The notes: generated by a model not told the origin, from the sequence alone. DNA of 64,000 nucleotides from an uncultured Candidatus Saccharibacteria bacterium (GCA_964621395.1 CAZULS010000002.1:170252-234251), one strand, 5' to 3'. Counted from the stretch's first letter, positions 13,476 to 59,785 are shown. Made by a program: numbers and translations.

Positions 13476-13660
13476 AGAGCCTGTTTATAATCTCATGTCG
13501 TGCGTAATGCACCATATACCGAGCGAAAATCGTGAAAAATGACGAAGGAGTACTCTCGTACTTCAAGACATTTTAAGCGATTTGCAGCCGGTATATGATG
13601 CATTGAGCCGGCAAGGACATGATATTCTTTTTAATTCCGTTGAGATTATGAACAGGCTCT
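13476..13660. mobile_element. MITE-like foldback element, family A copy 1 (TIR agagcctgtttataatctca / tgagattatgaacaggctct)
   Basis: 185 bp. Terminal inverted repeats plus internal complementary arms. The conserved core is ccgagcgaaaatcgtgaaaaa .. gagtact.tcgtact .. agcgatttgcagccggtatat. Copies are at 29210, 52898 and 59600. Confidence 0.7.
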
Positions 13661-13723
13661 AAAATCACAAGCATCAAATAACAAATAATATCCAAAATTA
13701 AAATTCCAAAATACGTGTCCTGC

Positions 13724-13773
13724 GTCGTCGCCGTGCTCTTTTGGCGCTTGCGCCAAAAGAGCACGGCGACGAC
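13724..13773. repeat. 50-bp perfect palindrome (gtcgtcgccgtgctcttttggcgc tt gcgccaaaagagcacggcgacgac)
   Basis: Read directly. A 24-bp stem with no flanking T-run. It sits between MITE-A1 and the PD-(D/E)XK nuclease gene. Confidence 0.6.
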
Positions 13774-13850
13774 ATTTACTTTTCTTTTACGACAAAATTT
13801 ATATTCTGTCATTCTGAACTTGATTCAGAATCTAAAGTAATATTCCATTC

Positions 13851-14645
13851 TTACCCAAACAGCCCACTTTGCTTCGGCGCCTCAGAACTCTCCTTCGGTT
13901 CCGACACCTGCGTGCGTGCATCGTAATATCGGCAATAATCACACTCAGGATGTGGCGCGGGGATGTTTCCGCCCGCAAGTGTTGCCTTAATCTCCTCAAG
14001 AGTTTGCTCAATCCACGCATCATTACCCTCGTAGGCGATGAGCGTCAGATCAAATTCAAGTTTTTTATTGAAGCCGTCCACCTCCTTCGTGGCATTGGCA
14101 TAGACAAAATATCCGGTATTGGAGACAGTGAAGCCGTTCTCTCGCAAAAGCCACTGATACACTTCCATCTGACGCTTATACCCATCGTGCCATTCTTGGT
14201 CGAGGGCGGTGATTTTTTCATCTTTACTTGTTGATTTGTAGTCGACGATAAAGAGCTCCCCGCTTTCCCCAACCCAAATATCATCAACGGCACCGGAGAC
14301 GGTAAAACCGGTTTTTTGGTGGACTGTCTGCACACCTTTGAAGTTCTCGCGCCACATGTCCATCTGTGCATGATTAAACGGCACGGCATTTACGCCGTAT
14401 TCCTCCATGATGGGGTGTTTGGTGCCGAGGGCGCGGTGCATGTCAAATTCTTTTTTGAGCAGTGCGTCAACGGCGGAGTTGAGTGCAAAAGGAAATCCGG
14501 GCGGTCGGGCGGTACCGAGGCGATTGTCGATATAAAAACATCTCGGACATTCTTTGAAGAGATCGATTTTGGAACGGCTCAAGCGAAAGCGATCCCCTCC
14601 ATAATTCCAATTGGGATTTCTATGCGGTTTGTAGTATTGAGACAT
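13851..14645 (-). CDS. PD-(D/E)XK (RecB/Cas4-like) nuclease with Cys cluster
   Basis: 264 aa. N-terminal Cys (CPRCFY), core IVDYKST (D-x-K) and a C-terminal CDYCRYYDAR. This is the four-Cys arrangement typical of Cas4/AddB-type Fe-S nucleases. No cas genes are nearby. Confidence 0.65.
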   Translation of the reverse strand: MSQYYKPHRNPNWNYGGDRFRLSRSKIDLFKECPRCFYIDNRLGTARPPGFPFALNSAVDALLKKEFDMHRALGTKHPIMEEYGVNAVPFNHAQMDMWRENFKGVQTVHQKTGFTVSGAVDDIWVGESGELFIVDYKSTSKDEKITALDQEWHDGYKRQMEVYQWLLRENGFTVSNTGYFVYANATKEVDGFNKKLEFDLTLIAYEGNDAWIEQTLEEIKATLAGGNIPAPHPECDYCRYYDARTQVSEPKESSEAPKQSGLFG

Positions 14646-14687
14646 GACGTTATTATATCATATTCTCTCATTGCTTTGCCCGAGCAC

Positions 14688-14740
14688 AACTTGTTGTGCT
14701 TTAGGGTCATTCCCGCCTCCGAGCGGGAATCTTCTCTGGT
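14688..14740. repeat. tandem REP-like palindromes: family 2 (gcccgagcacaacttgttgtgctttagggtc) fused to family 1 (gtcattcccgcctccgagcgggaatc)
   Basis: Both families recur many times in the window (see findings). Confidence 0.7.
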
Positions 14741-14824
14741 GTGGTGTATATGGAGAAGTTTCGAGTATCGAGTTGCGAGTTTCGAGAAGGCGCGGCTTGC
14801 GCCGCGCCTTCTACCACCACTCTC

Positions 14825-14915
14825 TATTTTTGTCATTCCTGGCTTGACCAGGAATCTAGAGTTACTATCCACGTATGTCATCCTGGATTTCTGGTCACCA
14901 GGAATGACGATTGTT
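14825..14915. repeat. two family-1 REP-like palindromes (tgtcattcctggcttgaccaggaatc ; gtcatcctggatttctggtcaccaggaatgac)
   Basis: Inverted-repeat units of 25-32 bp with a tgtcattcc..ggaatc frame. Confidence 0.65.
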
Positions 14916-15048
14916 TTTGGACAAAACCGCCGATGAGCGTGAGCTCATCGGTGGTTTATGTTTGATATTTTTCTTTTTTACGTGCCCGAGCACGACTTGT
15001 CGTGCTTTAGGGTCGTTTATAGTTTAACGTTTATCGTTCATCGTTCAC

Positions 15049-57795: not shown

Positions 57796-57937
57796 GATTA
57801 GTATGTCAGTATGTTAGTAAATTAGGAGGGTAGTATGTCAGTATGAATCGCTGCTACGCAGCTCCTTTTATTGGTAAATATTTGTACCATTTGTAGATTT
57901 GTAATTATTCGTACATTCGGAGTCCTTGTAATTTGTT

Positions 57938-58342
57938 CTAATGTGTTTTCAGTGCAGTACTGAGTTTCTTCAATGTGTGTTTGAGGCTTCCGTCGAGGAG
58001 GCGATTTTCATATCGGAGGGTAACGCCGCCAAGAAGCGACATGTCTGTCTTCTCAGAGAGCTCAACGAAAGTAGCATTCGTCTTTTCTTTTACATACTCC
58101 GTAATAATATGCTTCTCGCTTTCCGAGAGCTCTTTCGCTGAAGTAACATGAGCATGAACCCTTCCCTCTTCTCTATCATATAAGCGCCGAAGAGCCTCAA
58201 GAATTTCGTCTGCATACGGCAACATCATGTCTTCGGAGAGCACAGTGCAAAAACGGCTGAGAACCTCGGCACGTTCCTCACCGCCTTCTTCGAGGGCGGC
58301 TTTGAGTGCGCGGGCATAATATTGTGGGCTCGGTTTTTTCAT
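57938..58342 (-). CDS. atpH: F1 ATP synthase delta (OSCP) subunit
   Basis: 134 aa. Sits between atpF and atpA. The C-terminal LLGGVTLRYENRLLDGSLKHTLKKL is OSCP-like. Confidence 0.7.
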   Translation of the reverse strand: MKKPSPQYYARALKAALEEGGEERAEVLSRFCTVLSEDMMLPYADEILEALRRLYDREEGRVHAHVTSAKELSESEKHIITEYVKEKTNATFVELSEKTDMSLLGGVTLRYENRLLDGSLKHTLKKLSTALKTH

Positions 58343-58397
58343 AATTCAGTAAGTCAGTACATGAGGAGGGTAGTATGAATCGCCGCTTCGCGGCTCT

Positions 58398-58889
58398 TTA
58401 TGATTCATTACGAATCTCTTCTACAAGACTCTTTTGGGTTTCCGAATCGAGTTTTCCCAATACTTTTTCCAAAGAAAGCACCACTAAATCAGCGGTCTCT
58501 TCGCGAAGCTCGTTTTTCAGCTGTTTTCTTTCCTCTTCCATGCGAGCATGTTCTTTTTCTGCCTCACGCTGCATGTCTTCTTTCATTTCCGTGAGTGCCG
58601 CGACACGGTTCTTTTCCGCGTCTTCCCGTGTTTTTTCGAGGAGTGCATGTGCCTCTTTTTTCGCTTCAGCAAGCTTTTCTTCGTACCCACTGTGTGCTTT
58701 TTTCAGCTGTTCGTCGGCCGCTTGGGCGTCTGCAATTCCTTTCTCTACTTTTTTGGTACGTTCCTCAAGAACATGTGTGAGCGGCTTCACTACAAAGAAA
58801 TACAAAACAGCCAAGACAATGGCAAAGTTGATTACTTGGGCAATGAGAAGCCCGACATCAATGTGAAATGATTCGACGATTGGATTCAT
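58398..58889 (-). CDS. atpF: Fo ATP synthase b subunit
   Basis: 163 aa. One N-terminal TM helix followed by a long charged coiled coil. Confidence 0.8.
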   Translation of the reverse strand: MNPIVESFHIDVGLLIAQVINFAIVLAVLYFFVVKPLTHVLEERTKKVEKGIADAQAADEQLKKAHSGYEEKLAEAKKEAHALLEKTREDAEKNRVAALTEMKEDMQREAEKEHARMEEERKQLKNELREETADLVVLSLEKVLGKLDSETQKSLVEEIRNES

Positions 58890-59094
58890 ACGAGAGCTTA
58901 TAGCTGATAGCTTTTAGCTTATAGGCGCGCGCTTCGCGCGCAGTTTTTATCGTTATGAGTTTCGAGCAAGTGGTTTACACCCTTATCCGGGGAAAATTCG
59001 AGAAGTTGTTAGTTTTTAGTGAGTAGTTGGTAGTGCCGCGCGAGCGAAGCTCGCGCGGCTTTTATCGTTTATAGTTTTTCGTTTAATCGTTCAC

Positions 59095-59310
59095 TTAATT
59101 AATACTAAACGCAATAACCAGTGCGTAAATAGCAACAGCTTCGGCGAATGCGATTGAGAGAAGCATTGGCACAAGAATCTTACCGGCAGCCTCAGGATTG
59201 CGACCAATGGATTCCATTGCCTTTGCGCCAATGAATCCGATTGCGAGAGCGGGGCCGAGTGACCCAATACCGATAGCAAGTGCTTTTGCAAGCATAATTC
59301 CTTCTTCCAT
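59095..59310 (-). CDS. atpE: Fo ATP synthase c subunit
   Basis: 71 aa. Two TM hairpin helices with the conserved carboxylate (..[15 protein letters not shown]..). Confidence 0.9.
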
Positions 59311-59318
59311 ATGTATGC

Positions 59319-59515
59319 AGGACCTATCTCATATTAAACCGCTCCAAAGAGTATTTCTCCCACTTCGTGTGGAGGCTTGGCAGTTCTCGCCCCGAAAATT
59401 CGACTGCGCCTTGCTTCTCGACATCACCGTACAAGTAGTACGCTTCGGTCTCCGAGACTGCAGCTCGCACGAATTTTCGGGGCGATAACAAGCCATTTAA
59501 TATGAGATAGGTCCT
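59319..59515. mobile_element. MITE-like foldback element, family B copy 2
   Basis: 197 bp with TIRs ggacctatctcatattaaa / tttaatatgagataggtcc. It begins 8 nt upstream of the atpE start codon, inside the atp operon. Confidence 0.65.
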
Positions 59516-59599
59516 GTTGATTAAGTAATAAAAGCGTATGATACGCACGGAAACGTGTCTCATGCGGGACACACGCTTTCGTTCGTACCACTCCTTCTT

Positions 59600-59785
59600 A
59601 GAGCCTGTTCACAATCTCAACGGAATTGAATGAATAAAAATTTCCTTGTCGGCTGATATGCCCATATACCGGCTGCAAATCGCTCAAAACGTCTCGAAGT
59701 ACGAGAGTACTCCATCAACGTTTTTTACGATTTTCGCTCGGTATATGGGCATATCACGCACGACATGAGATTATGAACAGGCTCT
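59600..59785. mobile_element. MITE-like foldback element, family A copy 4 (inverted orientation)
   Basis: 186 bp, the reverse complement of copy 3 (96-98 percent identical by eye). It is in tandem with the family-B element inside the atpB-atpE spacer. Confidence 0.7.

Follow-up and report, generated by a model that had tools for sequence, protein, structure and literature searches.

What is the foldback sequence, here called family A, that recurs along a 64-kb stretch of DNA (the window, 64,000 nt analysed as a whole) from an uncultivated Parcubacteria bacterium (Patescibacteria; CPR) near Candidatus Yonathbacteria, and how did it come to lie where it does? The four copies proposed in the original prediction were all recovered at 185-187 nt each, namely copy 1 at 13476..13660 (+ strand, 185 nt, element proper 13477-13659), copy 2 at 29210..29396 (+, 187 nt), copy 3 at 52898..53083 (+, 186 nt) and copy 4 at 59600..59785 (-, 186 nt). 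Copy 4 is inverted relative to copies 1-3, as had been claimed, with complementarity of 96% to copy 3, 81% to copy 2 and 83% to copy 1. Full-length alignment gave a mean column identity of 89% with flanks counted, and the blocks quoted earlier for a conserved core were found. Matches to three 20-mers from the core or the terminal inverted repeats (TIRs) were confined to the family A copies (shuffled sequences are expected to give 0-0.03), and a covariance-model scan with filters off revealed no fifth copy in the window.

The element proper is about 183 bp long, runs from GAGCCTGTT to AACAGGCTC and has TIRs of 19-20 bp (GAGCCTGTTYRTAATCTCA). Its true termini are one base inward of the ends first assigned (GAGCC...GGCTC), and the TAA lies in the flanks. 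TIRs of 20 bp had been reported for all copies; seven of the eight match at three or fewer mismatches (and in fact within 1 mismatch of the consensus), the shortfall being due to the left TIR of copy 2, which is degenerate (13/20 vs the consensus). The suggestion to look for target-site duplications proved productive, in that a 3-bp TAA duplication is perfect at three of the four copies: copy 2 (29208-29210 and 29396-29398), copy 3 (52896-52898 and 53083-53085) and, in element orientation, copy 4 (59785-59787 and 59598-59600 in + strand coordinates). The triplets flanking copy 1 are TTA (13474-13476) and TAA (13660-13662), which can be read as an imperfect 3-bp or a perfect 2-bp (TA) duplication. 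Six-frame translation of five copies bore out the claim that no ORF is conserved inside, as no conserved ORF with a start codon appeared in any frame.

The positions of these insertions relative to genes are close. Copy 1 lies downstream of a PD-(D/E)XK gene (13851-14645, -) and precedes the start of a P-type ATPase gene (10740-13460, -) by 15 nt. Copy 2 parts the response-regulator gene REC1 (29382-29759, -) from REC2 (28813-29196, -), its insertion point being two codons ahead of the REC1 stop, and the REC1 C-terminus ..ALKK* is replaced by ..ALRACS*. Its TIR does supply the REC stop codon, as first proposed, but only four sense codons (R-A-C-S) rather than five, the Leu codon before them being in part target duplication. 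The predicted ancestral end ..ALKK agrees with the ..ALEK/..FTKK of relatives. Copy 3 is located between the atpC stop and a carbonic-anhydrase-like gene (52435-52869, -) and indeed ends 3 nt from that stop (53083 vs 53087-53089). Copy 4 occupies the atpB-atpE spacer, right after a terminator-like hairpin (59823-59800) that follows atpB, and together copies 3 and 4 form 96% identical inverted repeats bracketing atpE-atpC.

The whole unit folds, as had been predicted, but its shape is a Y rather than one long hairpin. A 20-bp TIR stem bears a 3' arm, which is short and variable, and a long, interrupted hairpin that spans positions 21-139 and contains a GC clamp with a bulged A and, at its apex, a GUAC-N4-GUAC hairpin. 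The internal arms described for copy 3 (GATATGCCCATATACCG and CGGTATATGGGCATATC) pair perfectly. Folding energies range from −88 to −107 kcal/mol (z = −10 to −17 vs shuffles), and 96.2% of cells are paired in the family A fold compared with 35-42% in slid controls. Covariation of the pairing arms was likewise confirmed, with both-side changes at 8 pairs, a count attained by none of 500 shuffles (4.2 ± 1.2).

This fold is biased toward one strand. The forward strand is the more stable in 8 of 8 sequences, under RNA and DNA parameters alike, and G·U pairs outnumber A·C mismatches by 22 to 3 over 320 equivalent cells and by 44 to 2 over the MFE structures, a ratio of roughly 10:1 that is independent of orientation to host genes. 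Within the pair of copy 2 orthologs, eight changes are between Watson-Crick and G·U pairs and two between Watson-Crick and A·C. The GC and AT skews of the window, considered as a replication-type cause of the G·U bias, are weak and inconsistent. Double-stranded cut-and-paste does not predict a same-strand fold and a G·U excess, and the one-strand bias suggests a folded RNA or ssDNA stage.

A sister family B, present in three copies, is a structural homologue of family A. Its members were scored with a covariance model built from family A only: copy 1 at 972..1164 (-, 193 nt; 74.1 bits, other strand 8.3), copy 2 at 28176..28370 (-, 195 nt including the duplication; 78.6 bits, other strand 13.4) and copy 3 at 59319..59515 (-, 197 nt; 62.7 bits, other strand 13.7). 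The Y-shaped fold and the positions of its motifs are common to the two families, and pairing covaries at 30 of 40 equivalent pairs when they are compared by motif-anchored ungapped helices (MAFFT mis-aligned the 5' halves). Asymmetric features also recur at fixed positions in both, CG[A/U]GCGA at 45-46 and G[C/U]AG[C/U]CG at 108-110, and these shared bulges and loops are likewise not predicted by cut-and-paste of double-stranded DNA. Family B copy 1 lies in the stop codon of an S41 peptidase gene (1163-2446), changing TAA to TAG, with a 2-bp TA duplication (site compared with relative L028). Copy 2 adds 65 codons in frame to a Bact_hydrolase ORF (27696-28388), six codons from the start of an ORF whose Pfam domain begins at residue 72; the copy has a 2-bp CG duplication and a clean empty site in relative L024 (GAAACCAATTAC). 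Copy 3 is in the atpB-atpE spacer adjoining family A copy 4, is absent from relatives L011 and L012 and has no recognisable duplication (flanks CA/TG). Family A copies 1-3 are antisense to their host genes, and family A copy 4 and all three family B copies are sense; orientation relative to the likely direction of replication is unbiased (3 vs 4).

We used strains whose flanking genes have about 94-96% nucleotide identity to look for empty sites. Clean or near-clean empty sites exist in close relatives for family A copies 1, 3 and 4. The copy 3 locus is a 51-nt element-free spacer in five contigs of relatives (same AtpC cluster, at least 90%), and at the copy 4 locus L011 and L012 (AtpB 96%) have a 123-nt spacer reading ...CTTTTTTTAATGTAGG.... 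At the copy 1 locus the spacer is 51 nt in a 94% relative (L027), 60 nt in L028 and 390 nt here, and because it has been remodelled by other repeats, its empty site is not base-precise. For copy 2, L026 has an empty allele in which ..EYALEK* is followed after 3 nt by the REC2 ATG, and L023 has overlapping REC genes (ATGA). The empty sites for copies 2, 3 and 4 map to the element ends. In empty alleles TAA or an equivalent triplet occurs once, and two of them have TCG and TCA as the target triplet, as opposed to the duplicated TTA. A filled ortholog of copy 2, 91% identical, is found in L024/L025; a relative lacking copies 1, 3 and 4 has copy 2. Among the six insertions of either family for which the orthologous site was recovered, five are absent from the closest relatives, and 73 kb of sequence from 81-96% relatives contained no elements except that single ortholog. 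Logan contig L010, from the same strain, ends 27 nt inside copy 3, as expected for a genomic repeat. Family A has been very recently active.

CPR/Patescibacteria have tiny genomes, and our search of the literature turned up no report of MITEs in this group. One 64-kb stretch of CPR DNA here contains seven foldback elements that inserted recently; they affect the essential atp operon, a translationally coupled response-regulator pair and a stop codon, and one enters an enzyme gene in frame. The case documents a burst of mobile DNA, specific to this lineage, in which gene ends are rewritten and which probably accounts for the heavy fragmentation of related assemblies.

All testable features of a MITE were found in family A (small size, below the ~300-600 bp typical of the class, TIRs, lack of coding capacity, dispersal in both orientations, target-site duplication and presence/absence polymorphism at the element ends), which supports the MITE reading given in the original prediction. 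The claim that no transposase is visible in the window also stands, as none of its 58 ORFs matches a transposase, a reverse transcriptase or an HUH protein; nor was an autonomous element or transposase with matching TIRs found in the window or in the 73 kb from relatives. We therefore consider it likely that family A is a non-autonomous MITE with a TAA target, moved in trans and having a conserved single-strand fold. Such an element would insert at TAA (TWA) and duplicate its target; as it encodes nothing, its mover would have to come from a gene at another site in the genome. Given the 3-bp TWA duplication and GAG termini (IS1031-group ends also begin with GAG), an IS5-superfamily DDE transposase (IS1031/ISL2-like) acting in trans is the likeliest mover. 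Pairing is maintained by changes on one strand that are compensatory or yield G·U. A co-transcribed element would place a hairpin of −90 to −105 kcal/mol in mRNAs, for example between atpB and atpE or after atpC, and the element may be transcribed and may affect mRNA processing or stability.

An IS5-superfamily (Tourist-like) attribution is the most likely one. PIF/Harbinger mobilises Tourist MITEs, and IS1031/ISL2-like elements are its bacterial relatives. The duplications seen here fit the 3-bp TNA/TWA (or 2-3-bp) duplications of the IS5 type: TAA at three family A copies and TA(A) at the fourth, and TA and CG in family B. IS1031-group insertion sequences have a 3-nt target (PMC2516522), and Tourist MITEs have TWA duplications, PIF/Harbinger being related to bacterial IS5 (PMC5172404). 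Family A resembles this group in its 3-bp TWA duplication, short TIRs, small non-coding body and preference for AT-rich sites near genes, but differs from it in its CPR host, in having no match in any of the sequence sets searched, in that no transposase was found with it in the window and in that the whole element is a fold with a one-strand G·U bias.

That bias is the one feature left unexplained by a plain dsDNA MITE model. Instead of ordinary MITEs moved as dsDNA by cut-and-paste, families A and B might belong to a superfamily of mobile structured elements, specific to CPR, in which the Y fold acts as a single strand, an idea that we hold only tentatively and regard as rather doubtful. The fold could then serve an unrecognised mobilisation machinery as its ssDNA or RNA substrate or, alternatively, be a mobile RNA module that brings a processing or stability signal to operons; either would explain the excess of G·U over A·C whatever the orientation to host genes. 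If the bias is true genome-wide, it offers a handle on action or movement as RNA or ssDNA. A further proposal, which we judge unlikely, is a strand-specific single-stranded intermediate, either ssDNA with an HUH/Y1-type enzyme (IS200/IS605- or RAYT/REPIN-like) or RNA with a reverse transcriptase. In that case the fold would be the enzyme substrate and the TAA on either side would represent a target motif together with an end motif carried by the element, an arrangement that empty sites alone cannot distinguish from a duplication. Such an intermediate would fit the better folding of one strand in every sequence under both parameter sets, the G·U excess (also between the copy 2 orthologs), its lack of dependence on host-gene orientation and the fixed asymmetric features common to both families. 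Nevertheless, perfect TIRs extend to the very ends, and the direct repeats vary by insertion (TAA, TA, CG), so that duplication at a staggered cut fits better than a fixed end motif. The 58 ORFs of the window lack Y1/HUH and reverse-transcriptase domains, and the even orientation relative to likely replication (3 vs 4) also argues against this intermediate. To our knowledge IS200/IS605 elements and REPINs have neither TIRs nor duplications. For these reasons (TIRs and 2-3-bp duplications here, no Y1_Tnp/HUH in the 58 ORFs) IS200/IS605-derived palindromes and REPIN-RAYT were rejected as identities, the single-strand fold bias being the only trait they have in common with families A and B.

It is considerably less probable still that the copies are a structured RNA with a host function (an sRNA family or a cis-acting mRNA hairpin) kept by selection for that function. 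The strongly conserved fold, whose compensatory and G·U changes fall on one strand, the positions at gene ends and within operons and the retention of copy 2 in two diverged strains would all be compatible with such an RNA. Presence/absence polymorphism and duplications, however, show spread by insertion and not vertical conservation. Absence of the element from the orthologous loci of most relatives is already largely seen, and the 73 kb of relatives' sequence lack it apart from one ortholog. Orientation to transcription is mixed. A promoter consensus scan around all four family A copies found no promoter-like (sigma-70-like) site inside any, so an element-borne sRNA promoter is not supported, and the better-folding strand has no terminator; the sole terminator-like match inside an element in the consensus scan was the apical hairpin of copy 2. 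At the Rfam gathering threshold tRNA-Ala was the only match in the window, and even at E ≤ 10 the copies gave nothing but noise (MIR6140 at 18 bits, gathering score 140, and a snoRNA). Chance similarity or an assembly artefact, for which only the generic risk of MAG-derived sequence speaks, has a negligible probability given that shuffles expect about 0 matches; it is already excluded through independent assemblies, as the same-locus element occurs in L024 and L025 (two other samples and assemblers) and in part in L010.

Exact-word scans of GTDB representative genomes and JGI metagenomes with two invariant 19-20-mers gave chance matches only, BLAST similarity ending at the word; scans of IMG/VR viral contigs found no relative of the element, blastn against plasmids and phages no match to it, and a literature search no match to the TIR string. 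Integron attC sites, retron ncRNAs, bridge/omega RNAs, K-turns and REP GTAG tags were rejected by inspection, since element order, motifs or multi-copy dispersal do not fit. REPIN/REP-RAYT and IS200/IS605 palindromes have arms that evolve in a compensatory way and a strand-specific mechanism, mobilisation or recognition acting on the single-strand fold. REP superfamilies are hairpin-forming repeats (PMC3733652), but REPs (20-40 bp) and REPINs (about 100 nt) are shorter than family A and do not have its TIR-plus-duplication architecture, and their GTAG/CGTC tags and linked Y1 transposase gene were not found here.

Direct repeats, TIRs and transcripts that form stable hairpins are typical of MITEs in prokaryotes (PMC10969869). 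Among them, Correia elements (Neisseria) and ERIC/IRU (enterobacteria) are MITEs of ~100-170 bp that occupy transcribed regions between genes, in either orientation, and form long RNA hairpins, altering mRNA processing or stability via RNase III or RNase E (PMC10969869). Their sequences are probably unrelated to family A, their hosts are proteobacterial and their duplication is TA rather than TAA, whereas families A and B have a three-way junction and a fold common to two diverged families; the likeness is probably a functional analogy only.

Rickettsia palindromic elements are known for in-frame insertions in genes. They differ in that the copies here are mostly intergenic and a duplication occurs, and there is no sequence relation; the likeness lies in family B copy 2, with its 65 codons inserted in frame, and in family A copy 2, which rewrites a C-terminus.

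All four family A copies were found where the original prediction had placed them: copy 1 at 13476-13660 (+) between a PD-(D/E)XK gene and a P-type ATPase gene, copy 2 at 29210-29396 (+) between the response-regulator genes REC1 (29382-29759, minus strand) and REC2 (28813-29196, minus strand), copy 3 at 52898-53083 (+), ending 3 nt past the atpC stop as predicted, and copy 4 at 59600-59785 (-) in the atpB-atpE spacer, immediately behind a terminator-like hairpin. Their end-to-end alignment has a mean column identity of 89% (10-nt flanks counted in). Copy 4 is indeed inverted, being complementary to copies 1-3 (96% for copy 3 and 81-83% for copies 1 and 2). 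Three invariant 20-mers match at family A loci only (0-0.03 matches expected from dinucleotide shuffles), and an unfiltered covariance-model scan covering the whole window detected no fifth copy. The 20-bp terminal inverted repeats (TIRs) attributed to all four copies are present at seven of the eight termini, which lie within one mismatch of TGAGATTATGAACAGGCTCT, but the left end of copy 2 is degenerate (13/20). Six-frame translation of five copies revealed no conserved ORF, as had been expected.

Orthologous sites for all four copies were recovered from contigs of close relatives. Comparison of empty and filled sites indicates that the element proper is GAGCC...GGCTC, so that the ends first proposed each lie one base too far out. 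The target-site duplication sought through such empty sites is a 3-bp direct repeat, TAA in element orientation, which is exact at copies 2-4 and reads TTA/TAA at the flanks of copy 1. In a relative with 96% AtpB identity (contigs L011 and L012) the atpB-atpE spacer is empty, 123 nt long and reads ...CTTTTTTTAATGTAGG..., and the window reads ...CTTTTTTAA[GAGCC...GGCTC]TAAGAAGG... and holds a second, different insertion in the same spacer. At the copy 2 locus, a strain in SRR20820740 (contig L026) carries an empty allele in which REC1 ends in ..EYALEK* and the REC2 ATG follows 3 nt later; REC1 and REC2 overlap (ATGA) in an 84% relative. The gene strand of the window reads GCGC-TTA-[element]-TTA-AGAAATAA there, and the REC1 C-terminus has changed from a predicted ancestral ..ALKK* to ..ALRACS*. 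The same copy 2 insertion, at 91% identity, occurs in two other contigs (L024 and L025; flanking genes 94-96%) from the samples whose contigs are without copies 1, 3 and 4. Five contigs of the cluster with at least 90% AtpC identity lack copy 3 and have a spacer of 51 nt between atpC and the next gene, where the window reads TAAC-TTA-[element]-TTA-TAATTTT. The copy 1 spacer is 390 nt in the window versus 51-60 nt in relatives, with remodelling that prevents base-level mapping. The Logan assembly of the same strain stops 27 nt inside copy 3, as expected of a genomic repeat. Other than the shared copy 2, no further copies were detected in the 73 kb sampled from relatives (81-96% protein identity).

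Every copy folds stably (-88 to -107 kcal/mol; z = -10 to -17), as predicted, but into a Y shape rather than one long hairpin. Besides the TIR stem of 20 bp, the Y has a long, interrupted hairpin at positions 21-139 and a short, variable 3' arm. Across five family A sequences 96.2% of cells are paired, compared with 35-42% in register-slid controls. Pairs changed on both sides number eight, versus 4.2 ± 1.2 in shuffles, none of which reached eight (0/500), which bears out the co-varying arms of the original prediction.

A covariance model built from family A only detected three more repeats, all on the minus strand, at 972-1164 (B1), 28176-28370 (B2) and 59319-59515 (B3), with scores of 63-79 bits on one strand against 8-14 bits on the opposite one. 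This family B has the same architecture at about 50-60% sequence identity to family A. Common to both are the 20-bp terminal stem, starting AG[AG][AG]CC (GGAGCC in B2), an apical GUAC-N4-GUAC hairpin (GCAC/GUGC in B2) and the 3' junction CAAG...CG(G/U)U, and all eight sequences contain CG[A/U]GCGA at positions 45-46 and G[C/U]AG[C/U]CG at 108-110. Thirty of 40 positionally equivalent pairs covary between the families, and the cells over these 40 pairs comprise 290 Watson-Crick, 22 G·U, 3 A·C and 5 other combinations. Family B, too, is mobile. In L024 the B2 site is cleanly empty, GAAACCAATTAC, where the window reads GAAAC-CG-[GAGCC...GGCTC]-CG-ATTAC with a 2-bp duplication (CG). The B2 insertion, 195 nt or 65 codons long, keeps the reading frame and starts six codons into a Bact_hydrolase gene (27696-28388). 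B1 lies within the TA of the stop codon of an S41 peptidase gene (1163-2446), changing TAA to TAG, and B3 is not in L011 and shows no visible duplication. The closest relatives, whose flanking genes are about 94-96% identical, are without five of the six family A and B insertions for which they yielded an orthologous site.

Folding of both strands, a check suggested with the original prediction, showed the AGAGCC... strand to be more stable than its complement by 10-35 kcal/mol in every copy, because the non-Watson-Crick positions on that strand are G·U. The better-folding strand is the same in 8/8 sequences under RNA and DNA parameters alike, and their minimum-free-energy structures contain 44 G·U pairs versus two A·C 1x1 mismatches. 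Orthologous copy 2 sequences differ by eight Watson-Crick-to-G·U versus two Watson-Crick-to-A·C exchanges (decayed TIR left out; one-sided p about 0.055), and in the TIR stem all one-sided changes that retain a pair are G·U. Copies 1-3 are antisense to neighbouring genes; copy 4 and B1-B3 are sense. A replication-skew mutational artefact may still lie behind the G·U bias, although the GC and AT skews of the window, which are weak, do not support it. A bias towards one strand irrespective of orientation, together with conserved asymmetric bulges, is not predicted by a cut-and-paste model of double-stranded DNA and points to selection on the folded single strand at some stage, which could be a single-stranded DNA or RNA transposition intermediate or a transcript of the element.

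This bias and the bulges would also fit an element that moves through such a single-stranded intermediate. However, the TIRs reach the element ends and the 2-3-bp direct repeats vary (TAA, TA, CG), as staggered-cut transposition gives, and mobility of the IS200/IS605, REPIN or retroelement type yields neither such TIRs nor such repeats; we therefore rank this alternative below movement by a DDE enzyme. A purely host-function RNA is unlikely, because insertions are polymorphic between strains, orientation is mixed and the elements lack promoters. Family A is best explained as a recently active MITE family (miniature inverted-repeat transposable elements), the original reading, with TIRs, target duplication, mobility and lack of an ORF all observed; the host is an unusual one for a MITE, and the insertions document a recent burst in which several gene ends were rewritten. 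None of 58 window ORFs scanned, which encode housekeeping or unknown proteins, matched a transposase (as predicted), reverse transcriptase or HUH nuclease in Pfam or NCBIfam. GAG ends are listed for the IS1031 group in ISfinder, and 2-3-bp duplications for the ISL2 group. Tourist MITEs and PIF/Harbinger, relatives of bacterial IS5, characteristically make a 3-bp TWA duplication (PMC5172404), and the IS1031 group within IS5 has a 3-nt target (PMC2516522). Judging from the element ends only, we favour as the mover an IS5-superfamily DDE transposase, which would be encoded outside the element and mobilise family A in trans.

The likeness to Tourist/IS5-type MITEs lies in the ends. Behaviourally, the element is like Correia and ERIC elements, MITEs that are transcribed as hairpins and influence what happens to the mRNA (PMC10969869); the in-frame insertion of B2 inside a gene is similar to Rickettsia RPEs. 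The element matched no Rfam family. At the search sensitivity applied, IMG/VR, plasmids and phages yielded no match either, and exact-word scans of GTDB representatives and JGI metagenomes gave chance matches only. No description of MITEs in CPR bacteria came up in full-text literature searches.

The nearest named relatives of the window's AtpB, response regulator and P-type ATPase belong to Candidatus Yonathbacteria, the Parcubacteria group and Patescibacteria (57-83% identity), with further relatives at 94-96% in a few metagenomes. Nearly all window genes are on the minus strand. Copies 3 and 4 (52898-53083 and 59600-59785), 96% identical and inverted, bracket atpE-atpF-atpH-atpA-atpG-atpD-atpC (6.5 kb), and through them most of the atp operon could readily be inverted or behave like a composite transposon. 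L011 contains two tRNA-like sequences (290-370 and 975-1050) upstream of its own atp operon.

The intergenic regions of the window are patchworks of short palindromic repeats from several families (GCGCCAAAGTTAAGCTTTGGC, TGTCATCCCGCACTTGATGCGGGATC, GCCCGAGCAC..GTGCTTTAGGG and CCAAGGTTRAACCTTGG), for example at 124-171, 13726-13771, 13804-13833, 14671-14722, 24314-24442, 31716-31800, 33070-33107, 36243-36376, 41493-41533 and 49889-49926. Orthologous spacers of close relatives hold different palindrome sets, and the small palindromes therefore turn over quickly as well. A repeat family of about 70 nt (43166-43235, 45688-45757 and 52316-52382; 88-90% identical, both orientations) terminates in a TGTCATCCCG-type palindrome. 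AT-rich oligo-repeats with a period of 7-8 nt (TTTATCGTTTATAGTT..., AGTATGTYAGTA..., ACGAATTACGAATA...) lie beside gene starts and ends at 15011-15057, 25857-25903, 27032-27075, 40752-40812, 43263-43309, 55114-55157 and 57792-57842. A Fic/DOC gene (45902-46774) lies between 76-nt direct repeats (45809-45884 and 46874-46949; 80% identical); next come five plus-strand ORFs (46996-50305) that matched nothing in Pfam or NCBIfam and, beyond them, a tRNA-Ala (50526-50599); the stretch 45809-50599 may be an island. In the leucyl-tRNA synthetase (20825-24238, minus strand; 1137 aa), inserted Ser_hydrolase and NUDIX domains separate the catalytic from the editing/anticodon parts, and the enzyme of the 84% relative has 966 aa and the NUDIX domain.
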